64,000 bases of DNA, taken from positions 23,643 through 87,642 of the forward strand of contig CACXKA010000005.1 of assembly GCA_902768125.1 (NCBI GenBank), given 5' to 3'. A model generated the notes under the pieces. It did no database searches, was not told where the DNA came from, and was given only the letters and a program-made list of their open reading frames with translations. Source of the stretch: an uncultured Bacteroidales bacterium. GTDB taxonomy: Bacteria > Bacteroidota > Bacteroidia > Bacteroidales > Bacteroidaceae. This document shows, piece after piece, positions 16,393 through 39,539 of the stretch. The position numbers and the translations under genes are program-made. The first letter of the stretch is position 1, and every line of letters starts with the position of its first letter.

Positions 16393-16407
16393 CTCAAATT
16401 TCTTTTC

Positions 16408-16449
16408 AATCCTTTGTAAATTAACAGTTTACAAAGGATTTTTCTTTTA
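16408..16449 (+). terminator. rho-independent terminator of the tRNA unit
   Basis: A 13-bp stem AATCCTTTGTAAA/TTTACAAAGGATT has loop TTAACAG and is followed by TTTCTTTTAT. Confidence 0.8.
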
Positions 16450-16585
16450 TTTGTCCTACTTTCACATTTGATACATTTTCTTTCAATTATGATACATTTA
16501 AGAAAAAACACGCTTGTATCATAAATAAAAGCAATTGGAACATAAGAGGAAAGCCACCTCGTGAAAAGTCCGTAACTTTGCACCA

Positions 16586-16680
16586 GAAAAAGTTAGTAAA
16601 GCATAAATAGGTTAATAATTAGTTAGTTAGTTAATTAGTCGAGAAAGTGCCCATTCGTGAGAACGGGCACTTTTCTGTTT
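16586..16680 (+). ncRNA. candidate small RNA, copy 1 (promoter-to-terminator module, paralog of 27326-27412)
   Basis: A TAACTTTG -7 box lies at 16573-16580. About 60 nt of AT-rich body contains ATAAATAGGTTAATAA. A GTGCCC/GGGCAC hairpin follows, then TTTTCTGTTT. There is no ORF. Ends are approximate. Confidence 0.5.
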
Positions 16681-16735
16681 AGGTACATCAAGTGATTATT
16701 GGAAAGGCTGGGAAAGCGCTTCACTTTCCCCTATT

Positions 16736-19700
16736 TCAGTCCTTCTCAGACCTTTTCATCCATTCTGAAGGTGTCAGGCCATACAGCGCCTTGAAGCTGG
16801 TGGAGAACGCAGACAGGGACTTGAAGCCTGTGGCAATGCTGACGCCTGTGATGTCGTAGTCCTTGTCCTCCAACATTCGTGCAGCCTCTTTCAGACGCAC
16901 ATACTTGACGAAGTCGCGAGGAGACTGGCCTGTGAGGTCTTTCATCTTGCGATAGAAATGCACACGGCTGATGCCCACCTTATCGGCAATCATCTCGACG
17001 GAGAGGTCGGAATTCTCCAGATTGTCGTTGATGACTTTCATCACACGCTTCATCAGGTGTTCGTCGGGCGATTCCATATCAACCTTGTCGATGTTCACCT
17101 CCTGCTGCTTGTCGGCATTGAATTTACCCTGCAAGAGCTGGCGCGTCTTCAGCAACTGCACGATCGTGGTGCGAAGCACATCTATATTGAATGGTTTGGA
17201 CACGTAAGCGTCGGCACCATTGCTGAGACCTGCAATACGGTCGGCATCACTACCCAAAGCCGTGATCAGCACGACAGGGATATGGTTGGTGTTGAAGTTG
17301 GCTTTCAACTTCTGGCATAAGGTCATACCATCCATCACTGGCATCATAATATCGCTCACCACAATATCTATCTTGCCCGGATGAGCCACGATATAATCCC
17401 AAGCCTCCTGACCATTGCCACAAAGATGAACCGCCAATTCAGAAGACAACTCGCTCTCCATATATTGACGAATCGCCTCATCATCCTCCACCAAGAGAAC
17501 TCTCTTGCGATTGGCTTCTGTGGGCTGTCCGAGGGTCAGCAGGCTGTCTGTATCGGCATTCGCCTCATCCATGCCGTCAACGACATTGACAACGGATTCT
17601 GGCTTGATGGAACGCAAGGAAGCATCTCCCACAGGCATGTTCACCACAAAGACAGTTCCCTTTCCTTCTGGGTTGTCCTCCACAGAGATGGAGCCCTTGT
17701 GCAGACGCACCAACATGGAGGTCAGATTCAAACCGATACCCGTTCCCATGTAACCATGCTGATGCTGAGCAGAATAGAAGCGCTCGAACACTTTCTGCTT
17801 CTCATCATCAGGAATGCCGACACCAGAGTCTATCACCTTGATTTCGAAGTCTGAACCCTTCTCTTGGAGTTCCAAGACGATTCTGCCACCATCCTGCGTG
17901 AACTTGAAGGCGTTGGAGAGCAGGTTCATCACAATCTTGTCCATATTGTCTGGGTCCACATACACCTGCATCCTATCTTTGTCATGCACAAACTCATAGG
18001 TGATGTTTCGGCTCTGAGCATTCGTCACAAACACATCATAGATGCTCTGGATGAAATCCACCAACTCCACAGGATGATAATCCAGCAAGAACTTGCCCTG
18101 CTCTATCTTCCTCACATCCATCATCTGGTTAATCAGACGCAAGATACGATTGGAGTTCTGCTTCATCAGCTGATAGTTCCTTTGACGCTCAGGGTCCTTG
18201 TCACGACCGATCAGTTTCTCCAATGGAGCCAATATCAGCGTCATAGGCGTACGAATTTCATGACTGATGTTCATAAAGAACTGCACACGCGCCTCATTCA
18301 GTTCATGTTGCTGACGGTTGCGTGCCATGACATGGCGCAATCTTACCTGACGCCTTACATATTCATAAACGAACCAACACAAGGCGAGGAACAGCAAGAA
18401 ATAGACCACCTTTGCCCATACAGAAGCATACCAAGCTGGGTGCACTACGGCAATCAGTTCGCGTTCGCCGCTGACTGCGCCCAGCGCAAGCGCTCTCACC
18501 TTGATGTGATACGTGCCCGGTTGTAAGTTATCAAAGATGATACGGGAGCTATTGCCACCCTGATCCATCCATTTGCCCCCATCAATGCTGTATTCATATG
18601 TCACATGCTGGTTGCTCAGTCCCTCCACGCACAATTCCAGTGCAAAGTGGTTGTCAGTGTGGCACAAATCCATCCTGCCACAATCATTGATCAGTCCTTG
18701 CAAGACAGCATAGCTTCCAGACATATCCCCTTGATGGATAGGCTTGTCATCTATCAATACATCAACAAAGCGCAGACTCAAGACACGTTCTTTGCCCTGC
18801 CAGTCTTTCATCTCTTTCGTGTCAAAGTAGGTGATGCCACCAACACCGCTAAAATACAATTTGCCATCCAACGCAAATGCGGCACCACGACTAAACTCAT
18901 TGTCCTGCAAACCATCATCCATGAAGAAATTGGTGAAAGTCCCCTTTCTCGTATCCATGCAAGACAAACCAAAATCAGTACCCACCCACAGGTTATCGCC
19001 ATCCACACACACTGATGTAACACTGTTGATAGGCAGGCCATCAGCTACCGTGTACGTACGCGTTGTGAACGACATGCAATCAATCTTCTGCAAGCCCTCA
19101 TTCGTGGCAGCCCAAATGTAAGCACCATCTACCGACAAAGCAAGATGGCGTATGGAGCTATGTCCAGGAATTCTGGTGCTCTTATAAAGAATTCTTCCGT
19201 CCTCTTCGATACGACAGACAATGATACCGTCAGCCGTTCCAACAAAGAGCTGATCCTTCACCGGCAAGACCGTATAGACATAAGGGTTTCCTATCACCTT
19301 GGCATCAGAAGAACTGTCCTGCACTGGTTTGTAAACAATATGCTTCCCCGTTGAATGATCATAATAATAAAAACCATCTCCCATGGAAGCAATCCAATAG
19401 CAATCCTTTTTTGCTGCCTCACGAATCTCAAATATCCAATTGAAGTCTTTGGTCAAACAAGAGAAACGACCATCCTTCATTTGCCACAATCCCTCATAGA
19501 ACGTACCCAAGAGCAATGTGGAAGAAGGCGCATCAAAGATAGTGGTGAATGCATGCGGCATGCCAGGATTCGTTTCTGCATTCCAATGTTTGGAGGCAGT
19601 ACCATCCGCAGCCAGGAGATACAATCCGTCATTCTCCACCGATGCCCAAAAACCTTTTGTGAAAGGAGCCGGATTCACCGCCTTAGCCAAGGCGTAAACA

Positions 19701-20743
19701 GCATTTTGTCCAACCGTATTCTTGAAGATGGAATTTTGTCCGATATAGTCAAAGGCTGACTGGTTGATAGGCTTCACCACTACACCCTTCATGTACACAG
19801 CTGCCCACGCATTGCCAAAAGAGTCATACATGGCATCCATTACATTGCTGGTCGCCATATCAAAGTCCTTCACTGATATCACATGCGGACTGATCCTCCC
19901 TACTTTTTCATCATAAACGCGCACACCACCACCATCTGTACTGAGAAGCAGACGACCGTCTGTCCATGTCCTGAGGTTCTGTACCGCACCCCCTAACTCA
20001 TCTGGTGATGCCACCAAGTTAAATTGGTCCTGTGCGCTGTCATACACATAGAATCCATTATTGTAAGTGGCTGCATACACTTTCCCCGACGAACTGGCAC
20101 ACACCTTCCTCAACAATCGCAGCCCCTCATAACGATGAAAGCCCTTTGGCGTTTTTCTGAACAATGCTCCTAAACCAGTAATAATCCAAGTTCTCCCTTT
20201 AGGGTCATCAAAGAGGCGAATGGAGCTAACGCCTTCTATATCGAATTCCTCTGTACGTTTCGTGTAAAACTCACCCTTCTTGTTTTTCAGGAGTTCGCCA
20301 TTGCCATATCCAGCATAGCACACAATCACTCGATTCTTCCTCAAGCGGTTGATACTCACCACACGTGCCTTGACCGTATCGTTTTCAGACCTGATAAAAG
20401 GAATATCTGTGAATTGGTTGGTGGCGTAATCAAACACCTGCAATCCAGCTCCCGTACCGATGAGCATTGTCCCTTTCTTATATTCAAAAACAAATGTACT
20501 CTCATCATAGCAGAGCGACGAGGGATTGCCTATCTCATGACGATAGACATTCATCTTCACGCCATCGTAGCGGTTCAAGCCGTTTTGCGTGGTCACCCAA
20601 ATGTTGTGCAAACTGTCTTCTGTCAGATTGCGCACCCGGGAATTAGACAAGCCCTGTTTTGAACTGAAGAACATGACGTTTTGAGCACCCAAACCAAGTG
20701 TTCCCAAAACAAAATATAGAAGGGTTAGTAAATAAAATTTCAT
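16736..20743 (-). CDS. hybrid two-component system sensor kinase/response regulator with AraC-type HTH (HTCS)
   Basis: It has a periplasmic beta-propeller/Y_Y_Y region and a TM segment. It also has a HisKA box (FFMNISHEIRTPMTLI), an HATPase (VIDSGVGIP), a receiver (DIVVSDIMMPVMDG) and a C-terminal AraC HTH. I chose the ATG at 20743 because a TACCTTTG -7 box lies at 20776-20783, inside the GTG-started track ORF. Confidence 0.9.
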   Translation of the reverse strand: MKFYLLTLLYFVLGTLGLGAQNVMFFSSKQGLSNSRVRNLTEDSLHNIWVTTQNGLNRYDGVKMNVYRHEIGNPSSLCYDESTFVFEYKKGTMLIGTGAGLQVFDYATNQFTDIPFIRSENDTVKARVVSINRLRKNRVIVCYAGYGNGELLKNKKGEFYTKRTEEFDIEGVSSIRLFDDPKGRTWIITGLGALFRKTPKGFHRYEGLRLLRKVCASSSGKVYAATYNNGFYVYDSAQDQFNLVASPDELGGAVQNLRTWTDGRLLLSTDGGGVRVYDEKVGRISPHVISVKDFDMATSNVMDAMYDSFGNAWAAVYMKGVVVKPINQSAFDYIGQNSIFKNTVGQNAVYALAKAVNPAPFTKGFWASVENDGLYLLAADGTASKHWNAETNPGMPHAFTTIFDAPSSTLLLGTFYEGLWQMKDGRFSCLTKDFNWIFEIREAAKKDCYWIASMGDGFYYYDHSTGKHIVYKPVQDSSSDAKVIGNPYVYTVLPVKDQLFVGTADGIIVCRIEEDGRILYKSTRIPGHSSIRHLALSVDGAYIWAATNEGLQKIDCMSFTTRTYTVADGLPINSVTSVCVDGDNLWVGTDFGLSCMDTRKGTFTNFFMDDGLQDNEFSRGAAFALDGKLYFSGVGGITYFDTKEMKDWQGKERVLSLRFVDVLIDDKPIHQGDMSGSYAVLQGLINDCGRMDLCHTDNHFALELCVEGLSNQHVTYEYSIDGGKWMDQGGNSSRIIFDNLQPGTYHIKVRALALGAVSGERELIAVVHPAWYASVWAKVVYFLLFLALCWFVYEYVRRQVRLRHVMARNRQQHELNEARVQFFMNISHEIRTPMTLILAPLEKLIGRDKDPERQRNYQLMKQNSNRILRLINQMMDVRKIEQGKFLLDYHPVELVDFIQSIYDVFVTNAQSRNITYEFVHDKDRMQVYVDPDNMDKIVMNLLSNAFKFTQDGGRIVLELQEKGSDFEIKVIDSGVGIPDDEKQKVFERFYSAQHQHGYMGTGIGLNLTSMLVRLHKGSISVEDNPEGKGTVFVVNMPVGDASLRSIKPESVVNVVDGMDEANADTDSLLTLGQPTEANRKRVLLVEDDEAIRQYMESELSSELAVHLCGNGQEAWDYIVAHPGKIDIVVSDIMMPVMDGMTLCQKLKANFNTNHIPVVLITALGSDADRIAGLSNGADAYVSKPFNIDVLRTTIVQLLKTRQLLQGKFNADKQQEVNIDKVDMESPDEHLMKRVMKVINDNLENSDLSVEMIADKVGISRVHFYRKMKDLTGQSPRDFVKYVRLKEAARMLEDKDYDITGVSIATGFKSLSAFSTSFKALYGLTPSEWMKRSEKD

Positions 20744-20855
20744 CGTTGTCGTATTAAGTTTAGTGTATTCAGGTACAAAGGTAATAATTATAATTGACAC
20801 TTAGCAAGGGATGATTCTTAAATTTTCTGAATAGCAGGAAAAAAACAAAGAGAAA

Positions 20856-20929: not shown

Positions 20930-23900
20930 TTATTTCTGAAGAACCTTCACACCGTTCTTGATGACGATGCCCTTGTAGTTCTCATCCACTTGCTGACCAG
21001 CGAGGTTGTAGATGACATCTGTCTGAGCAGCTGGAGTAGCCTCTACAGCTTCGATAGCAGTTTCGATGTCCTGAGCCAACTTCTGAGCAGCTGCTGCGTA
21101 GTCATAACCTTCGAGAGGATTAGTGAAGTAAAGCGTAGCATTTCTTACCCAAGTGTTGGTATCCCAGAATGCTGCTGGCTCGTAAGCACCCAGCTCTTCA
21201 CTCCAAGTATGAGTGGAAGCCTTGCCAGAACCCAAGTGTTCAACAGCACCGATAGTGAGTTTCTGACCATCCTTAATCTTAATGCCAGGAATGTAAGTAG
21301 CATAACCCTGATCATTGTAAGAACCCACTGTGAATGGAACCATGATAGGAGCCTCGTCATCCACCTGGGCGAAGATGTACTTATCCCAAACACCATTTTC
21401 GTCCTGAGCGTTGAAGAAGCCGTATTGGCCATCACCATCAGGATTGTTCTTAGAAGCAGTACGAGACTGGATGTTCACCATATATTCACCTGCTGGAATA
21501 TTCTCAATCACCTGATAGAACTTGTATTCTGCGCTCTGGCCATAACCATTGAGTGAAGCAGTAACCACTGGATTGTCAGCAGAAGCAGCAGTTGTCATCT
21601 TAGCAGAACCAGTATGAGTTTCTGTCTCTTCTTGATCATTGGTCGTCTCGTAGGTAAGACCTTCGAAAGTCCAACCAGCAAAGTCAACTACTTGTGCATC
21701 GGTGTTCGTAGTATAGAAGTTCGGATTTCTAACATAACCAGAAGCAGGGATACCAGAAAGGAGGAGCTTGTGACCATCAGCATCGTGTGTAGCAACAGAT
21801 TCTGGATCAGTCTCGTCAAATCCTTCCTCATCCACCTCTGAGCTATACTTCTTCTCTTTCAAAGCATCAAGGTCATCACCATTAACGATTGCATTATAGA
21901 GTGCAAGAGTAATATGCTTGTTCGCAGCTTCGATATCTGGAGTTGCATCGTCTGCAAGAGCGTCCAAAGCGTCAATCACTTCATCAGCAACACCGAGTTT
22001 CATTGCCAATTCAGAAGCACGAGCAGCACGGTATGTCAGAATGTCAACAATACTCTTAATGTTGTTCAAGATACCAGGAACACCATCCACATCCTTAGAT
22101 GCAGCTGCGAGTTCATCGTCAGAGAAGCCCTTTGGATCAACGCCGTCATACTTCTTGATGATAGCCTCAGCATCCTTCACCTTCGGATTTGTCTTATACT
22201 TACCTTCGAGTGTTTCGATAGAAGACTGAGCATCAGCAAGCTTCTTCACGAAGTTGTCGTAGTTTGCCTTGCGCTCTGCGAGCTTCTGGCTTGCAGCACT
22301 CAGTTCCTTCACCATGGCTTCAACTTCTTGAGGATTGGTGAATGAGCCATCCTGAGCCTTCTTGATAGTTTCAGCCAAAGCAGTCTTAGCTGTACCATCA
22401 TACTTCTCATCAGCACCATTCAGATTCATCTGAGCAGTTTCAATGGCATCTTTCAGTTTCTTCATTGCTGCTGCACCAGAAGAAGCAGGCTTAGATGTAA
22501 CAGAGAGAGAAGTGAGAATCCAGCACTGCCAACCACTGTTACCTTCAAATTCCACATAATAGTAACCAGGTTCAGTAACAACGAACTCATATTCAACAGG
22601 AGTCATAGCATCATCAGTTGTGATCGTTGTACCTTCATGCAAAATCTTTGCATCTGGCACGATACCAGTTTCTTCAAAAATCACTTCAGGTGTTTCATCA
22701 CCAGGCTTGCACACTCTTACAGCGTATGGTTGAGAATGGTCTTCCCATGCACCATTACGGAAAGTCAGAAGATAAGTACCTTCGTCAAGATAGAGCGCTT
22801 CTTCGTCTGTGATACCCTCTGGAAGCTGGCCACCAATAGCCAACTCAGCTGCATACTTACCAAACTGGAGGAGACCCTGAGAACTATTACGAGCACCCCA
22901 ATAGATACCATGATTCACGTGGTCGTTTGCACCCATGATACGTGGAGCGCCACCACCTGTATAAGGTTCAGCAGATGTACTCTGACGCTCGCCATTGTCA
23001 CTTGTACCGCTATAACCGATTGGAAGAGCATCCTGACCATAACCAGTGTAGTCAGACTGCAATGCAATCACCTCTTCTGCGTCGCCCTGAGGCTCACCAA
23101 TTTCAAATGTAACCACTGCATCTTCAGCAGCAACAGAACCTTCGGCATTCTTCAAGCCTGAAATAACCACCTGATATTCACCATCAGTAAGACCCGAAAC
23201 AGGAACTGTCACTGTCTTTCCATCTTCGGAAAGTGTAATGCCTGCAGTAAGATCCGTCTTCTTAGTACCCTTCATCAGCGTAGCCTTAGCATTCTTTGCG
23301 CTCACAGCTGTAGTGAAAGTCATAGAAACTTCCTTCACATCTTCTGGCTTCAAATTGAATGAGTTGTTCACAGGAACTGAACTTCTCACAGTGGGCTGAC
23401 CCCATGCTGCAAATTCAGTGTCAACATTCTCATCCCAGTATCCCTGTTCGTTCTTGAAAGCGAACACCTGAACGTTGCCAGTTTTGTCAGAGCTTGGACG
23501 GTCAGCAGAAGAGTAAAGCAGTTCTTCAGAACCTTCGAAGCTTACAACCACATTAGACTCCTCGTCCAACATAGCATCCACAAGAATATAAAGGAAACCG
23601 TCCTCCTTACCTTCCAAATAAAGAACATCTACCTCTTCGTCATCTACAGTTACTTTAACAAGTTCCTTATCCAATGAGATTGTTCCCTTATTTGCCTTAG
23701 CAAGGCTGGCAATGTTAGTGGCATAACCGAAGTCTATCTTAATAATTTCATCACTGTAAGTAACTTCCTTGACAGCCACACCCTCGTCAATCCTGATGTC
23801 ATCAAGATAGTATGTAACAGGGCAGAACATGTTAGCGATAAAGAAGTAAACTTCAGGAAGTTTCTCGTTGAAGTGCTGTCTGTAAGTCTCACCAGCTTGA

Positions 23901-24511
23901 CCACCAAATCTTGAAGGATACTCACCAGTTCCCTGCCATGATGGGATGGTAGCATCCATTGCCTCAGCCGTTGGGTTGTAAACAACAAATGACATGTGCT
24001 GCCACTCACCATTGAATGGAGTCTGTGCATTAGGACCCGTCACCTGGTTTAAACCATAACTCAAAATAGACTTGTCATAGTTTTCCATACCCTTAGAGAG
24101 CCAAGAAGTAAGCTTAGTATGCTCTTCTGTTGGTCCCCCCTCTGCATCGGTTCCTTCATAAGTAGGATCAGCCTTAATCCAGAAGCTGACACGGTAAGGG
24201 GTTTCCAGCTTCATGGGGAAACTCATCTTGAAACCACGATCCCAAGACTGACCCACAGCGCCTGTGTTGGCTGCCATAAAGCAGTACTCACCACTGTGTG
24301 GATCCTCTGTTGACTTTTCAGTCCACGTGTCAGTGTCTTTGTAGTTCACCCAGTCGCCATAAGTTCCGAGCTCGGGTGTCAAGGCATACTCTGTCTTGAA
24401 GGCATCCAATGGAGTGTCGTCTTCAAAACCAAGCTGTGCCACAACGGTCTGTGCCTGCAAGGAAGCGGCACCTAAAAGACCAGCTGCAATCAGTAAGTAA
24501 ATTCTTCTCAT
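20930..24511 (-). CDS. large multidomain secreted protein of unknown function with a T9SS C-terminal sorting domain
   Basis: 1193 aa with a signal peptide. It has jelly-roll/CBM-like N-terminal and C-terminal modules, a helical Ala/Lys/Asp-rich central region, and the tail ...VIYNLAGQQVDENYKGIVIKNGVKVLQK. Confidence 0.75.
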   Translation of the reverse strand: MRRIYLLIAAGLLGAASLQAQTVVAQLGFEDDTPLDAFKTEYALTPELGTYGDWVNYKDTDTWTEKSTEDPHSGEYCFMAANTGAVGQSWDRGFKMSFPMKLETPYRVSFWIKADPTYEGTDAEGGPTEEHTKLTSWLSKGMENYDKSILSYGLNQVTGPNAQTPFNGEWQHMSFVVYNPTAEAMDATIPSWQGTGEYPSRFGGQAGETYRQHFNEKLPEVYFFIANMFCPVTYYLDDIRIDEGVAVKEVTYSDEIIKIDFGYATNIASLAKANKGTISLDKELVKVTVDDEEVDVLYLEGKEDGFLYILVDAMLDEESNVVVSFEGSEELLYSSADRPSSDKTGNVQVFAFKNEQGYWDENVDTEFAAWGQPTVRSSVPVNNSFNLKPEDVKEVSMTFTTAVSAKNAKATLMKGTKKTDLTAGITLSEDGKTVTVPVSGLTDGEYQVVISGLKNAEGSVAAEDAVVTFEIGEPQGDAEEVIALQSDYTGYGQDALPIGYSGTSDNGERQSTSAEPYTGGGAPRIMGANDHVNHGIYWGARNSSQGLLQFGKYAAELAIGGQLPEGITDEEALYLDEGTYLLTFRNGAWEDHSQPYAVRVCKPGDETPEVIFEETGIVPDAKILHEGTTITTDDAMTPVEYEFVVTEPGYYYVEFEGNSGWQCWILTSLSVTSKPASSGAAAMKKLKDAIETAQMNLNGADEKYDGTAKTALAETIKKAQDGSFTNPQEVEAMVKELSAASQKLAERKANYDNFVKKLADAQSSIETLEGKYKTNPKVKDAEAIIKKYDGVDPKGFSDDELAAASKDVDGVPGILNNIKSIVDILTYRAARASELAMKLGVADEVIDALDALADDATPDIEAANKHITLALYNAIVNGDDLDALKEKKYSSEVDEEGFDETDPESVATHDADGHKLLLSGIPASGYVRNPNFYTTNTDAQVVDFAGWTFEGLTYETTNDQEETETHTGSAKMTTAASADNPVVTASLNGYGQSAEYKFYQVIENIPAGEYMVNIQSRTASKNNPDGDGQYGFFNAQDENGVWDKYIFAQVDDEAPIMVPFTVGSYNDQGYATYIPGIKIKDGQKLTIGAVEHLGSGKASTHTWSEELGAYEPAAFWDTNTWVRNATLYFTNPLEGYDYAAAAQKLAQDIETAIEAVEATPAAQTDVIYNLAGQQVDENYKGIVIKNGVKVLQK

Positions 24512-24515
24512 ACTT

Positions 24516-24573
24516 TAAGTTTTTGGTTAAATGAATTTTGGTTAAATGTTTGTTGTTAAGTTTTTGGTTAAAT
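24516..24573. repeat. three copies of TTTTGGTTAAAT in the 5' leader of the 1193-aa gene
   Basis: TTAAGTTTTTGGTTAAAT occurs at 24516-24532 and 24557-24573 (identical 17-mers). TTTTGGTTAAAT occurs at 24536-24547. Confidence 0.85.
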
Positions 24574-24616: not shown

Positions 24617-24624
24617 CAAAGTTA
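24617..24624 (-). promoter_or_regulatory. -7 promoter box TAACTTTG for the 1193-aa gene (about 105-nt leader)
   Basis: It is the reverse complement of CAAAGTTA within CGCTGCAAAGTTATGG. Confidence 0.55.
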
Positions 24625-24643
24625 TGGAAATTGCAAAACAAAC

Positions 24644-24717
24644 ATTTTGCGAGATGTTACATATATTTTTCGATAGGTTACATAAACAGGGCAAAATGCC
24701 CGGATGTAACATTTTTT
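24644..24717. promoter_or_regulatory. cluster of four GTTACAT/ATGTAAC motifs (candidate activator operator)
   Basis: TGTTACAT lies at 24645-24652, GTTACAT at 24667-24673, ATGTAACAT at 24694-24702 and ATGTAACA at 24710-24717. They are symmetric around the palindrome GGGCAAAATGCCC and lie just upstream of the -7 box. Confidence 0.4.
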
Positions 24718-24798
24718 GGATGTAACAGGAAACAAAAAGACCTCGAAAGCCAAAGACTTTCGAGGTCTGTTCACCCTGTTCAAAAGGGCTTATTCTGT

Positions 24799-26970
<2,172 letters not shown>

Positions 26971-27325
26971 TTAGTTTTTAAAAAGATTTGGTAAATATAA
27001 TTAAATATTAATATGTCATACAACATGTCACTTTCTTGCCGGATATTAGACCTAGCAACCAACTATTAGTTTAATTGCCAGAAGCAAAAATCATCAGATA
27101 CACACAAAAACACACAAATACTGACAAGTTTTGGAACAACGTTGAGTGCAAAGGTACGGAAAAACAAAATATAAAACTTTATATAGCGTTCCATAATCTT
27201 TCATTTTTGATACATTCGCTCCTCCAACACCCCATTTTTGCAAGAAAAGCAATTTGTAACACCTTGTAAAATTGTTGAAACATGCGAGAAAGCCTATGTC
27301 GTAAAAAGTCCGTAACTTTGCACCA

Positions 27326-27412
27326 GAAAATTGATAATAAATAGGTTAGTAAAAAAAGTTTAGTATTCAACTGGGGGCTTCTCTTCGTGATGAAGGGGAG
27401 CCTCGTTTTTTT
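27326..27412 (+). ncRNA. candidate small RNA, copy 2 (paralog of 16586-16680)
   Basis: An identical 27-nt promoter block AAAAGTCCGTAACTTTGCACCAGAAAA is present (-7 box at 27313-27320). It shares the ATAAATAGGTTA box. A 13-bp hairpin spans 27374-27404, followed by GTTTTTTT. There is no ORF. Ends are approximate. Confidence 0.5.
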
Positions 27413-27469
27413 GTAGGTGAGTGCGGTGGAGATATTTTTACTGTGCGGAGAAAAAATTGTTCGAGTGCG

Positions 27470-27542: not shown

Positions 27543-29594
27543 TTAGTTGATGAAGTAGTTCTTCGTCTGACCTTTGTAGGTGCACTTCACAGTCGCACGA
27601 CCATTGGAGATACTTCCAATCTGGAAGGTGACAGCTGGATCGGAAGCTGTAGCCTTGATAACAGAGTTATCCTTGAGTGGTGCGTATGCCTGATAGTTGT
27701 TTGCCATCATGAAACCATTGTCATTGGTGGAGAACATCGGTGCTGTAGGCAATTTGATTTCCTTACCATCAACCGTAATGGTCACAGTTGGCACAACAGG
27801 AGCCTTGATGCTTGCTGGACCCTTGCTGAAACAGAGTCCGTGAAGGTCGAAGAGACCCTGTGGACGCTGCTGACCCTGCTGCTGTCTGCCACCGCCACCA
27901 AACTGAGGACGGCCTTGTGGCTGCTCAGGCTGCTTGATTTCGTCGCCTTCCACCACAAGATAGATAGCGTGCTTGCCTGTGAGTCCTTCCACTGCAGGAA
28001 CATCCACACTATACGTTCTCTTATTATTCGCAGAAGCTGGAACGTCGATGATACCGATTTCCTGACCCTTCCAAGGATCATCCAACTTGACATGAATCTT
28101 GAAGTTGCCCTTTCCACTTGGCGTCATAGTCAATTCCAACGTCGTTCCGTCGCCCTTCTTGGTACCCTCAAAAGCCTTACAGCCCTTGGAATCCTTTGCC
28201 AAACCGCCAAAGCCAAAGTACTTGAAGCCTACGATGCCACCATTCTGGATGCCAGCGAGATCCATAGAGTTGTTCCAAACATCGTGGTTATCCTGCATCC
28301 ACTGGTTGCTGTTAGGACCATACATGTAACAAGCAAGACCCGCAGAGTAGTAAGCATAAGGAGGAAGGCCATAAATCTGGAAACCTTCAGAAGTCACCTC
28401 TGCACCAGTATATTCATTACCGTCGCTTGCCTTTGCAGTCCATTCGTTGTTCTTTGTATAGGGATCGTAACCAACGATGCGTACCTTGCCACCATCAGCT
28501 ACAGACTTCTTGTCCCACTCAATCTTCACAGGAGCCACCATTGCTTGGCGTGCATTGCCGAAGCCACGTGGTGGACGGTGATAGAACACATACCACTGAC
28601 CATTGATCTCCTGCAAAGAACCATGCGTGTTGTGACCTGCATTGGTTGTAATGAGCTTAGAACCATCCTCGTTCACCACCACGCCACGAGAGTCAACCAA
28701 CACACCACCAGAACGCCAAGGACCCAGTGGAGAGTCACCATAAGCATAGCGGAGTGCAGAGTTGGTGTTACCCAAACCGTATTCCTTACCGCTATAGCCA
28801 GAGAACACCATCACGTATTTGTTGCCCACCTGACGGATAGAAGATGCCTCGAAGAAGTTGAAATCGAGAGGGTTCTGACCTTTGTAGAGCGCCTTGTACT
28901 CACTACCAGCCCTATCAAGCAGACGACCATCGGCACTGCTGGCTGGAATGAATGGGTCAATCAGGTCTGTGCCTTGACGCTTGCTGTACATCGTGTTCTG
29001 GTCAAGCTCACAAGCAGTAGAGTGCTGGAAACCATAGAACACATACGCACGGAAGCCCTTGTCGTAGTCAGGATCTTTTTTGTCAGTGATATTCTCAATG
29101 AACACAGAAGGGTCGAAGTCGATAAGTGAACCCTCCACACACTGACGACCGTCAGGAGTCAGGTTGACAGGAGTGAAAGGACCATTGGGACGGTCACCCT
29201 TACATACCATTGGAGTACGACGCCAACCACGAGAGTGAGGATAGAGCCAGTAAGTCTTCTTACCGGTTGCCTTGTCCTTCACCTCCACGAGATCTGGAGC
29301 ATACATCGTGTCCCATCTGCCATCTACATAATGAGAGAAGATAGGACCTTCGTCACGCCATTGGCTGAGGTCTTCCACAGGAGCAGACCACATGCGCACG
29401 TCGTTACCACAATAAGCGGTGTAAGTCACGTCGTGCGAACCAATGATGTAAGCACGATACTTGCCAGGATTGTCAGGATCCTCGAATACACGAGGCTCAC
29501 CATCTGGCAAGTGCTCCCAAAGGGGAAGATAAGGGTTCTGAGCCGATGCTGTCAGGGCACAGAACGAGAAAAGAATTGAAAATAACTTTTTCAT
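27543..29594 (-). CDS. GH43 family glycoside hydrolase (xylosidase/arabinofuranosidase type) with a C-terminal beta-sandwich module
   Basis: 683 aa with a signal peptide. It has five-bladed-propeller-type motifs (NPYLPLWEHLPDGEPRVF, YAPDLVE, DPSVF). Confidence 0.75.
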   Translation of the reverse strand: MKKLFSILFSFCALTASAQNPYLPLWEHLPDGEPRVFEDPDNPGKYRAYIIGSHDVTYTAYCGNDVRMWSAPVEDLSQWRDEGPIFSHYVDGRWDTMYAPDLVEVKDKATGKKTYWLYPHSRGWRRTPMVCKGDRPNGPFTPVNLTPDGRQCVEGSLIDFDPSVFIENITDKKDPDYDKGFRAYVFYGFQHSTACELDQNTMYSKRQGTDLIDPFIPASSADGRLLDRAGSEYKALYKGQNPLDFNFFEASSIRQVGNKYVMVFSGYSGKEYGLGNTNSALRYAYGDSPLGPWRSGGVLVDSRGVVVNEDGSKLITTNAGHNTHGSLQEINGQWYVFYHRPPRGFGNARQAMVAPVKIEWDKKSVADGGKVRIVGYDPYTKNNEWTAKASDGNEYTGAEVTSEGFQIYGLPPYAYYSAGLACYMYGPNSNQWMQDNHDVWNNSMDLAGIQNGGIVGFKYFGFGGLAKDSKGCKAFEGTKKGDGTTLELTMTPSGKGNFKIHVKLDDPWKGQEIGIIDVPASANNKRTYSVDVPAVEGLTGKHAIYLVVEGDEIKQPEQPQGRPQFGGGGRQQQGQQRPQGLFDLHGLCFSKGPASIKAPVVPTVTITVDGKEIKLPTAPMFSTNDNGFMMANNYQAYAPLKDNSVIKATASDPAVTFQIGSISNGRATVKCTYKGQTKNYFIN

Positions 29595-36987: not shown

Positions 36988-37129
36988 ATCGGTTTTATCT
37001 TGTTAGTAAATAGAAAGCGTGAAGGTACATCCCACACAAAACGCGTTGCAAAGTTAGAGATTTTCGTTGAAACCCACTTTGCAACGTGTTTCATATATTT
37101 GCGCGTATGTTACTTGTTACATTTATTTC

Positions 37130-37183: not shown

Positions 37184-37224
37184 CATAAAAGCGTATCTCT
37201 CAAGCCGCGTGGCTCGAGAGATAC
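37184..37224 (-). terminator. rho-independent terminator of the 779-aa gene (stem overlaps the stop codon)
   Basis: On the minus strand the stem is GTATCTCTC...GAGAGATAC, followed by GCTTTTATG. Confidence 0.7.
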
Positions 37225-39539
37225 TTTTCTGTTTTACGATACTTTTTCGTGATTTCGTCGTAGCTGATGAATCCTCGCTTGGTCCATTGTGCCAGCTGAT
37301 CCTTGGGGCTTGGGTTCTTTTTGCCTTGCTGAATACGGATGGAGCGGCATTCCTCACGACTGAACTCATCGGGCAGCAGGTCGAGCATGTTGGCTATTCC
37401 GCCATGAGCCACCTTCTTCTCCACTTCCATGTCTTCACCAAGTGCCTCGCTGAAAAGGTTCATCTTGCACCACATGTCATAGTCGAACGACCAGCGGCAG
37501 AAGTTTTCAATCTCGGACGACCATTTCTGACCGTTCATGATATAGAGCACACAAGCCTTGCGGAAGGCAATCACTGCACCACGACGCGCCAAGATGCGAT
37601 AGCCATCATCATCGAACAATGCTGCACGTTCAACACCCAGCTTATTGAGGTCGTTAGCCATCTTCTTGGCTTGCTGACAGACGATGATTCCTTGATTCGC
37701 AGCCTCATCCAGCAGTTGCAAGTATGCCATCATCTGCTGCTCGTACTTCTCATCGTAACGCTTATAGACGGGAATCACACCATTATCTTCCGTCTCAGGG
37801 ATGGTGCAGAAGTTGAGACGTGACACGGTGCCGTCATTGACATTCTTGCGAAAGAATCGGATGGCTGTGGAAGGTGTGGTCGATGCATTCCAACACCAGC
37901 GCATAGGGGCACGGGCAGTCACGGATTGTGCGCCTACACGCTCCTGACCATACATATCCGTATCGAAGTTGCGACAGATGATGCGGCTCACCATCTCTTT
38001 CGACGAACCTCCAGCCATCTTCGACAGCATCTCCACTTCATCCATACGCGTGTAGAGACATTTGTGGCCTGCTCGTTCAGCATCTGCCAATCGCTGGGTG
38101 AAGGCGGCGTTGGTCATGTCTGAATCGTTCACTTGGATGCAGATGTCTGTAGGGCGAACCACACCTTTCTTGTTGGCAGACTTGCTGTTTTGCCCGTCCT
38201 TCCATTCCTGCTCCTGCTCTCTGCAAAGCTTGTCACGGGCAATAATGTCCTTCAGGCAGATGTCAATGGGCTTCTTGATGCACGACTTACCTGTTGACAT
38301 GGGCGCCACCAGCACGTTCATCATTGTCGCCTCCATCTCCGAATTGTCTGCATACTCCAGTTTCACTCCTCCCATACGAGTTGCCCAAGCAGGGAAGATG
38401 GCGTGTGCCATAGCAGGGCGGCAATGTTCTGGCACCTTCGAGATGGCGATGCGGATGGGAGTGGGCAAACGGCGTGGCATCTGCGGTTCCCTCATCAGTG
38501 CCTCACGGCTCTTTCCCTGCTCCATGTTCAGACGGCGACGGCAGAGGTCAAGGGTCAGTTTCATTTTCTGGCTCATGGCAGCCGACTGCTTGCGCTTGCA
38601 GGCACTCCGAATGGTTTCCGTCACTCGCTCATGACTCTCACCATAGTCGGGCAGGATGCTGCGAATCCACTGAGGGTCGTCGTTGCAGATGTGGCGCAGA
38701 TGGCAACTCATCAAGAAGATGAAGTCATTCCTGTTGCCATGCTCAGGTGCACCTCCCAACTGGTCAGCCAGTTCCTCCACAATCATCGTATAGGGGATGC
38801 CACGATACTCAGTAGAATAAATACCCTCGGTGTCATCGCTGTCATCGTCATCGCTGTCATCGGTTGCGGGTTGAGATTTCGGCTGAGTTTTCAGCTCGCG
38901 TCCATCAATGTCAAGCCCACGGTCGGTGTAAGCCTTGCGACGCATTGCCACTTCTTCGTCAGAGAGCCGCTTTTGCCAATCCTCGCTCGTATAGAGCTGA
39001 GAGGCAGCATCCGTGATGTAGATCATGCGTTCGGGCGAGCAGCAGTCAAGGTCGAAGTCCACATCCAATGCCTCCGTGTAGGCTTTCTGAGCCTCTACGA
39101 TGGTCATGCCTACGGGGATGCGGATGTCCAAGTGCAGCTTCTTGCTGGCAGAATACTCCACATGGAGCAACATACCCTTCCAAAGCCCTTCCTCCTTGTT
39201 AAGAAGGTACGCACGTGAAAGGGCTGGTGCCACCTGCTTCTCATCGTCGATATCCACACAGGTCTGAAACGTGAACTCCTCAGGCAGAATGGCATCTTGC
39301 GCACGATGGTTATCTGCGAAACGGAAGTAATGCGGACAGCGGAAGGGCAGCATACCCTTCAATCGACGACGCTCATCTTTATCCTCCGTCGCACGAATCT
39401 GGTGAATCAAACTTGTCACCTCGTCGGACTTGGTGACGTTAACAAACTCCTCGAGCGTGTGCTCGAACACTTGCCCCTTGGGGGCGCGAACCTTGGGGTT
39501 CATTGCAATCATCTTGCAGTTCAAATTTTCTTTTGTCAT
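37200..39539 (-). CDS. putative replication protein: VirE-N/BT4734-like primase-type N-domain fused to a P-loop NTPase (DUF3987-like)
   Basis: 779 aa. The N-terminal pattern is RRLKGMLPFRCPHYFRFADNHRAQDAI...FQTCVDIDD. An acidic linker (DDSDDDDSDD) follows. Walker A is VLVAPMSTGKS and the Walker-B-like motif is CLYTRMDEVE. The family assignment is from memory, not from a search. Confidence 0.6.
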   Translation of the reverse strand: MTKENLNCKMIAMNPKVRAPKGQVFEHTLEEFVNVTKSDEVTSLIHQIRATEDKDERRRLKGMLPFRCPHYFRFADNHRAQDAILPEEFTFQTCVDIDDEKQVAPALSRAYLLNKEEGLWKGMLLHVEYSASKKLHLDIRIPVGMTIVEAQKAYTEALDVDFDLDCCSPERMIYITDAASQLYTSEDWQKRLSDEEVAMRRKAYTDRGLDIDGRELKTQPKSQPATDDSDDDDSDDTEGIYSTEYRGIPYTMIVEELADQLGGAPEHGNRNDFIFLMSCHLRHICNDDPQWIRSILPDYGESHERVTETIRSACKRKQSAAMSQKMKLTLDLCRRRLNMEQGKSREALMREPQMPRRLPTPIRIAISKVPEHCRPAMAHAIFPAWATRMGGVKLEYADNSEMEATMMNVLVAPMSTGKSCIKKPIDICLKDIIARDKLCREQEQEWKDGQNSKSANKKGVVRPTDICIQVNDSDMTNAAFTQRLADAERAGHKCLYTRMDEVEMLSKMAGGSSKEMVSRIICRNFDTDMYGQERVGAQSVTARAPMRWCWNASTTPSTAIRFFRKNVNDGTVSRLNFCTIPETEDNGVIPVYKRYDEKYEQQMMAYLQLLDEAANQGIIVCQQAKKMANDLNKLGVERAALFDDDGYRILARRGAVIAFRKACVLYIMNGQKWSSEIENFCRWSFDYDMWCKMNLFSEALGEDMEVEKKVAHGGIANMLDLLPDEFSREECRSIRIQQGKKNPSPKDQLAQWTKRGFISYDEITKKYRKTEKYLSSHAA
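38814..38862 (+). repeat. degenerate third copy of the 48-nt boundary repeat, inside the 779-aa CDS
   Basis: GAATAAATACCCTCGGTGTCATCGCTGTCATCGTCATCGCTGTCATCGG is about 42/48 identical to the boundary repeats. It encodes DDSDDDDSDDTEGIYS on the minus strand. Confidence 0.85.

Follow-up and report, generated by a model that had tools for sequence, protein, structure and literature searches.

The ranking of competing polysaccharides by gut and rumen Bacteroidota is only partly understood. In Bacteroides the FopS and GibS RNAs, two kinds of small regulatory RNA (sRNA), repress some utilisation loci, and in Bacteroides fragilis the sRNAs of the DonS type are encoded within polysaccharide utilisation loci (PULs) and overlap in antisense the PUL genes that they control. 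GibS of B. thetaiotaomicron is a carbohydrate-responsive, trans-acting sRNA that pairs with the start regions of glycoside hydrolase (GH) genes. FopS of the same species also pairs with start regions and represses by blocking the ribosome (PMC11697453). A further sRNA that affects PUL expression, SrcF of Segatella copri, depends on a hybrid two-component system (HTCS) and is a highly structured, single-copy RNA of 272 nt that is repressed through the fructan HTCS (bioRxiv 10.1101/2024.04.05.588293). The subject of the present analysis is a pair of intergenic modules, A (16469-16680, + strand) and B (27208-27412, + strand), within a window of 64,000 nucleotides, which is the whole stretch of DNA analysed and the source of all plain coordinates given here. 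The window was taken from contig C5 of a metagenome-assembled genome (MAG) of an uncultured rumen bacterium from a Prevotella-like genus of the Bacteroidaceae; the genome examined comprises 41 contigs and 2.78 Mb at 48% G+C and is 90% complete. Each module consists of a TGWWACA array, a -7 promoter, a body and an intrinsic terminator, and the two are most likely the genes of small regulatory RNAs that belong to an undescribed, genus-restricted multicopy family.

What do the two modules share, and how much of it is particular to them? A preliminary description, made from the letters of the window, had recognised a duplicated block at 16530-16680 and 27285-27412, and this is confirmed by pairwise alignment, in which 16440-16700 and 27180-27440 have 77% identical columns and beyond the aligned blocks no flanking duplication is seen. 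Common to A and B are an identical block of 27 nt, AAAAGTCCGTAACTTTGCACCAGAAAA, the sequence ATAAATAGGTTA within a C-poor, unstructured body, and TTCGTGA at the top of a G+C-rich hairpin that is followed by a T-run. ATAAATAGGTTA occurs exactly twice in the genome, both times at these loci, and CTTTCA-N2-TTTGATACATT (with at most one mismatch) is found at three genome sites, all of them at A or B. The 27-nt identity is as reported, but much of it is the organism's extended -7 consensus, since TAnCTTTGCA with an A-rich stretch from -9 to -5 is the general promoter logo of the genome (939 TAnnTTTGC sites); only the remainder of the block is specific to the A and B loci. At up to three mismatches AAAAGTCCGTAACTTTGCACC has 26 sites in the genome and its reversed control has none. 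Likewise, the hairpin and T-run are present in both modules but the hairpin top (TTCGTGA/TTCGTGAGAA) is not exclusive to the pair, as it recurs in a few other terminators of the genome and in the Rfam model BTnc231.

In gene A the -7 promoter box, TAACTTTG, lies at 16573-16580 (+) and has no -33 TTTG, the place of which is occupied by a conserved GAGAAAG block. The predicted sRNA A of about 93-96 nt would run from an inferred start at 16585 to 16680 (+), and it comprises a C-poor, unstructured 5' part of some 58 nt with repeated UUAGU/GGUUA motifs, followed by a terminator hairpin at 16643-16672 that is capped by a GUGA tetraloop and leads into an interrupted U-run (CUUUUCUGUUU). Gene B has the same box, TAACTTTG, at 27313-27320 (+) and a predicted sRNA of about 86-88 nt at 27325-27412 (+), the unstructured 5' part of which contains AUAAAUAGGUUAGUAAAAAAAGUUUAGUAUU, while a terminator scan and folding place its terminator hairpin at 27374-27404, followed by a run of seven U residues. 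The hairpins of A and B fold at -22 to -23 kcal/mol (z about -3.3), and that of B is strand-specific, with the minus strand reaching only -10.8 kcal/mol. Neither module had been thought to contain an open reading frame, which is correct for A, where there is none on either strand in this genome and five relatives (six in all), but needs qualifying for B, which has an open frame on its antisense strand. The length of this frame varies from 25 to 106 aa between species, and for that reason a protein-coding reading of its 106-aa form was rejected. At gathering thresholds Rfam recognises only two tRNAs and one thiamine pyrophosphate (TPP) riboswitch in the whole window, and at E <= 10 it returns only sub-threshold matches on the two modules, in keeping with the earlier statement that they could be assigned to no named family.

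Comparative support for RNA genes comes from the relatives, which are uncultured rumen or hindgut 'Bacteroidaceae bacterium' or Prevotella-like MAGs from yak, buffalo, sheep and cattle. A DNA search found homologues in 36 of 59 genomes of the same rumen genus. The homologous loci collected were used to build a covariance model, R1, from an alignment of 28 distinct sequences, and this finds one to three copies in each of 34 of the 59. In the genome under study R1 scores A at 96.4 bits (16586-16677) and B at 72.4 bits (27324-27407), with the next match at 31 bits, such that there are two strong copies only. Among 151 genomes sampled from 35 genera of the family, eight have a match: six are in the host genus (the present genome included) and two other genera have a single weak match each (44-46 bits). 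An exact-match scan of metagenome contigs of the Joint Genome Institute (JGI) added 18 rumen contigs. Most species have exactly the same 57-nt type-A body, AGAAAAAGUUAGUAAAGCAUAAAUAGGUUAAUAAUUAGUUAGUUAGUUAAUUAGUCGAGAAAG, as judged from 18 aligned type-A sequences of other species, and its near-invariance is a sign of purifying selection. The type-B body, AGAAAAAUUGAUAAUAAAUAGGUUAGUAAAAAAAGUUUAGUAUUCAA, has orthologues in 10 other species, and further types are present in the relatives; across types the columns of the (A)UAGGUUA core are invariant. The terminator is the only consensus structure, with 91% of its cells paired and 11 of its 12 pairs changed on both sides. It holds 54 compensatory cells compared with 16 +/- 3 in shuffled alignments, none of 500 of which reached 54, and slid controls gave much lower values. 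Position is conserved as well. In several species a single contig carries both types, some 12 kb from each other, and in all eight relatives with enough flanking sequence type A is convergent to the C-terminus of an orthologous HTCS of 68-78% identity, whilst only two relatives have the tRNA-Leu that flanks A on its opposite side. A frozen single-stranded body, a covarying terminator and a fixed position together form the pattern of an sRNA gene, and count out a miniature inverted-repeat transposable element (MITE) or chance. The proposal that A and B are paralogous, polysaccharide-linked noncoding RNA units of about 85-95 nt thus gains support from family, synteny and covariation.

How, then, do A and B compare with the RNAs described at the outset? 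The closest resemblance is to FopS (RF04319), which also exists as multicopy paralogues, is read from a canonical -7 promoter, begins with a single-stranded 5' part, ends at a Rho-independent terminator and has a C-poor body with a GGUUA(A/G)UAAAG-like sequence and predicted pairing with the start regions of glycan-utilisation genes. A and B have this architecture in that the terminator is the sole helix of their consensus fold, and differ from it in length, being with their 86-96 nt or so about 20-25 nt longer. Neither the universal FopS 5' sequence GUGUUUUUCAUAGUAUUAGAUUUAAGG nor the seed R1/R1', GUAUUAGAUUUAAGGUUAAC (the reverse complement of the published pan-FopS probe), is present in A or B, and the only submotif held in common is (A)GGUUA(A/G)UAA(AG). 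With the RF04319 model (gathering score 56 bits) cmscan gave no match at E <= 10 on 16540-16700 and 27290-27430. When the whole genome was searched with this model it identified FopS copies at C4:232782-232851 (+, 74.5 bits) and C9:66744-66817 (-, 61.2 bits) and left A and B untouched. The promoters of these FopS genes are without phased TGWWACA arrays, unlike those of A and B, which are also set apart by their fixed place beside an HTCS gene inside a xylan cluster. FopS-10 of B. thetaiotaomicron was reconstructed from published primers and a probe, and the C4 copy agrees with this reconstruction exactly over its first 39 nt.

The likeness to GibS is one of predicted action, as GibS is longer, has two seeds and uses another promoter motif. 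Type C members of the family in other species (L071, L098 and L100) contain UAGUAUUAGAUAG, which resembles the GibS 5' sequence UAGUAUUAGAUA, a motif that is absent from A and B except for UAGUAUU in B. A sub-threshold FopS/GibS-like element, containing GGUAUUAGAUUUAGGUUAGUAAAAGAUUG, was seen elsewhere in the genome (G000:C32:15631-15719, -; 26.9 bits with RF04319, 29.3 bits with R1); it is situated about 100 nt downstream of a strong promoter and may be a longer GibS-like RNA. The best Rfam sRNA-family match for A is Prevotella-2 (RF03043), which has AUUAGUCG and then a cUCGUGAGa-capped hairpin, and copy A is the sole place in the genome that this model matches. The score is, however, only 21.8 bits (21.1 in the genome search) against a gathering score of 72.1, B has no match, and A forms neither of the model's two 5' hairpins; true RF03043 members were absent from the 151 genomes sampled from the family. 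As with the DonS type, A and B would be small RNAs encoded inside a PUL, but neither module overlaps a gene, and each has a terminator of its own short of the convergent gene. SrcF shares the Prevotella-type host and the HTCS link, and no sequence relation between it and A or B was seen. A and B therefore look FopS/GibS-like in their predicted action but, judged by sequence, are a separate, lineage-restricted family.

Each promoter is preceded by an operator-like array, in which positions are counted from the T of the -7 box (TAnnTTTG). The array of A (16469-16542, +) has TGATACA at -104 (16469) and -83 (16490), an inverted TGTATCA at -58 (16515) and TGGAACA at -37 (16536), with a unit spacing of 21-25 nt, and positions -106/-105, -85/-84 and -37 are also occupied in 20 type-A homologues of other species. 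That of B (27208-27282, +) has TGATACA at -105 (27208), TGTAACA at -58 (27255) and TGAAACA at -37 (27276), and its -105 unit also precedes, by some 50-58 nt, the divergent promoter of the GH10-esterase gene. The preliminary description had noted TTGATACATT about 100 nt upstream of the -7 box. It is indeed there, with small offsets, starting at 16468 and 27207, and has a second copy in A (ATGATACATT, at about 16489), but it is better seen as one unit of an array with 21-nt phasing. Throughout the family (40 promoters) the -33 TTTG is absent and TGAAACA or a close variant is found at -37, with further TGWWACA units at -58, -85/-84 and -106/-105 in the same phasing. An ECF-sigma (extracytoplasmic function) reading of this region as TGAAAC-N18-CGTA was rejected, since the family members do not conserve the CGT.

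Of 2015 -7 boxes in the genome, 10 have TG.AAC at -37. Five of the 10 are within the window, where they belong to A, to B, to the GH115 operon, to the GH10-esterase gene and to a gene for a protein of 1193 aa. The promoter of the 1193-aa gene (24617-24730, -) has TGTTACA at -103 and -87, TGTAACC at -58 and TGTAACA at -37, and that of the GH115 operon (37049-37125, -) has TGAAACA at -37 and TGTAACA at -65. Pairs of TG[ATC][AT]ACA set 13-15 nt apart number 16 in the genome, where about two would be expected. Outside the window such pairs precede an MFS_2 sugar transporter gene, a divergent GH97/mannonate dehydratase (UxuA) pair and a paralogue of the 1193-aa gene, which by their annotation suit a role in the use of xylan and glucuronate. 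Upstream of an MFS_1 transporter gene and of susC there is a TGCAACA variant. HTCS regulators bind tandem half-sites (PMC13292587). Tandem half-sites common to the genes of a cognate locus, the mark of an HTCS regulon, are found here as a sequence pattern, and from this we infer that A and B are in the regulon of the adjacent HTCS.

The other half of the argument concerns what the RNAs may act upon. The C-poor, single-stranded bodies are as expected for pairing with the A/C-rich, G-poor leaders of Bacteroidota, and a target scan covered 3836 candidate start regions (-60 to +21). An ungapped-helix score of at least 16 is reached in 10 regions by A and in 11 by B, compared with 0-2 in each of six controls. 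Outside the A and B genes, 43% of the 10-mers complementary to sRNA A are in start windows (-60 to +20), which make up 4.8% of positions; the same test gives 13% in the sense orientation and 10-14% with composition-matched controls. The top matches of A are to three of the five GH51 genes of the genome, two GH43 genes, single genes for GH127, GH29 and GH2 enzymes, and one KduI-like gene; the best predicted targets are mostly arabinose-related glycoside hydrolases. The predicted targets include GH43/GH51 start regions at C7:104820 and C7:103720, and there are further sites on contigs C3 and C23. Strongest of all is the match to a 47-nt intercistronic spacer before a GH51 gene, within an operon on contig C15 (G000:C15:9915-9961, -), where 32 nt are complementary to nt 29-60 of A through 28 Watson-Crick and two G-U pairs with two mismatches. 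The spacer is too short to hold an antisense paralogue with its own promoter or terminator, and the long complementarity is kept in four other species at shifted positions.

A similar 30-nt element was observed before a GH29 fucosidase gene at C5:17406, 6 kb before the start of the window, and both this and the C15 element read GACUGACUAACUA, with G-U wobbles against the sRNA. The leader of the 1193-aa gene (24516-24573, -) carries AUUUAACCAAAA three times, just as the preliminary description had it. The pairing of the GGTTA core with this repeat, offered there as a speculation, does not hold up: it amounts to only 6 base pairs and ranks 1308 (A) and 1925 (B) of the 3836 start regions. A pairing of B with codons 2-7 of the HTCS mRNA, ranked 11 and kept in one relative (G028) and not in another (G024), was set aside as unsupported.

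Taken together, these observations lead us to favour, with moderate confidence, the reading that A and B encode sRNAs which are linked to the xylan sensor and work in trans, at start regions of other glycoside hydrolase genes. A and B would be two independent genes for trans-acting sRNAs of about 90 nt, each with a promoter that has a sigma-ABfr-type -7 box, no -33 element and three or four TGWWACA units about 21 nt apart (-37, -58, -84 and -105). The arrays would be tandem half-sites to which the adjacent xylan HTCS, or else a close paralogue of it, binds through its AraC-type output domain, such that the RNAs are made together with the xylan and glucuronate genes bearing the same arrays. The G/U/A-rich single-stranded body would then pair with A/C-rich translation-initiation regions of other glycan-degrading genes and alter their translation, the likeliest effect, after FopS, being repression through ribosome blocking. 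For sRNA A the targets would chiefly be enzymes of the arabinofuranosidase type (GH51, GH43 and GH127). What the sequences show is the anatomy of the genes, the family with its synteny, purifying selection and covarying terminator, the common operator array and the complementarity; that the RNAs are transcribed, that the HTCS binds the arrays, in which direction the RNAs regulate and which genes they truly target are proposals built on these. The more specific version, in which the HTCS directly activates the sRNA genes through the operator of the enzyme genes and the RNAs act on GH51, GH43 and GH127 start regions elsewhere, is tentative and, as a whole, doubtful.

The interest of such an arrangement is that a separate putative sRNA family is physically and evolutionarily tied to one xylan sensor and bears the operator array of that sensor's locus. 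The path from sensor to sRNA to other enzyme loci makes a concrete and testable circuit, for which the predicted target set of sRNA A is coherent. If true, it would represent a hard-wired RNA link by which the sensing of one plant polysaccharide resets the use of others. The family also indicates that Prevotella-like rumen bacteria have lineage-specific sRNA families besides FopS, here in a genome where an RbpB-type partner was not found.

Several points weigh against the favoured reading. The start and length of both transcripts are predictions. Over the 3836 start regions the bulk of RNAduplex energies equals that of reversed and shuffled controls, and it is the tail of the helix scores that differs. 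The GH51 site is absent from 24 of 29 orthologous leaders, including those of several type-A carriers, which makes target conservation weak. Many of the matches of B fall on promoter -7 boxes, in DNA that precedes the start site, and were set aside as an artefact, and those of its matches that are annotated have no common function. The half-sites of the sRNA promoters are mostly TGAAACA/TGATACA and those of the enzyme promoters TGTAACA/TGTTACA, a difference that makes a paralogous or other regulator possible. It is also not obvious why repression of arabinofuranosidases should be a good strategy during growth on arabinoxylan, which makes the predicted sign of regulation less sure. Lastly, no RRM_1 protein (RNA-recognition motif; PF00076, RbpB-type) was found in the 90%-complete genome.

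This last result bears also on the alternative in which A and B are protein-binding or sponge RNAs after the fashion of CsrB/RsmZ, with the (G)UUAGU(A)/GGUUA repeats as binding sites and the complementarity to start regions arising since the binding protein also recognises leader-like sequence. There are seven or more UUAG/GUUA units in sRNA A, in the variants of three species (G007, G057 and G017) further tandem GUUAGUAAAG units are inserted at the 5' end, and it is the entire 57-nt body that is frozen and not a short seed alone. In addition, the RRM protein RbpB binds the 5' 55 nt of FopS in B. thetaiotaomicron (PMC11697453). Set against this, the orientation-specific excess of 10-mers and the 32-nt match in the GH51 spacer are directly explained by base pairing. 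Moreover, Hfq, ProQ and CsrA are not known in Bacteroidota, and an RRM_1 protein was not found in this 90%-complete genome. We regard a sponge function as unlikely.

A second alternative is that the units have a purely local role with no RNA function in trans, either as insulators of convergent transcription, as antisense RNAs on the 3' ends of the HTCS gene and a 683-aa gene, or as decoy operators that titrate the regulator. Each unit does aim at a minus-strand gene from its 3' side, type A stays linked with the HTCS 3' end at all eight loci, and the interrupted U-run of A makes some read-through into that 3' end conceivable. A local role leaves unexplained why the 57-nt body is near-invariant when the HTCS is only 68-78% identical, and why A and B have sequence in common when the genes that they face are unrelated. 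It is further opposed by the strong terminator of B with its U7 run and by the separate terminator, at 27500-27482, of the minus-strand 683-aa gene that B faces, and we consider it quite improbable. That the units are dispersed, MITE-like repeats or chance likenesses of strong promoters and terminators is hardly credible, for although generic promoter consensus makes up much of the 27-nt identity, the hairpin top is found in a few other terminators and short antisense-like fragments of the body exist elsewhere in the genome, there are just two genome copies, where a MITE would be present in many copies whose sites vary and which have terminal inverted repeats and target-site duplications, their flanks are not duplicated, their positions are syntenic over dozens of species, the terminator stem has compensatory changes, and ATAAATAGGTTA and the upstream unit are confined to the A and B loci.

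The genomic surroundings of the two modules are those of a glycan-degradation cluster. The intergenic DNA that holds A extends from 16394 to 16735; genes for tRNA-Met and tRNA-Leu (+) come before A, and on its other side is the HTCS gene (16736-20800, -). The preliminary description had an HTCS gene at 16736 with A pointing to its 3' end, and the Pfam domains Reg_prop, HisKA, HATPase_c, Response_reg and HTH_18 bear this out; the HTCS has an AraC-type output domain, and A is convergent to the 3' end of its gene. B is held by intergenic DNA between 26967 and 27543, where it is divergent from the GH10-esterase promoter (TACCTTTG, 27156-27149, -) and convergent to the 683-aa gene (27543-29594, -). 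The identification of this gene as a GH43 was not confirmed, since its product has no Pfam match at E <= 1e-5. The same is true of the 1193-aa (20930-24511) and 779-aa (37200-39539) products, which are also encoded on the minus strand. A 1172-aa look-alike of the 1193-aa protein is encoded on contig C1 behind the same operator pair. Besides these three large proteins the cluster encodes GH95, two copies of GH115, esterases and a CotH-like protein, and the gene content indicates a locus of the glucuronoarabinoxylan type.

The neighbourhood of B differs between species. In relatives (L058-L066) an additional gene is read from the promoter that diverges from type B, so that B is 2 kb from the GH10 gene, whereas the genome under study is without that gene and has a GH10 leader of about 180 nt (26968-27150, -). 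In one relative (L059/L101; G032:C105:3366-3789) a second, divergent member of the family stands in tandem with type B, about 280 nt upstream of it.

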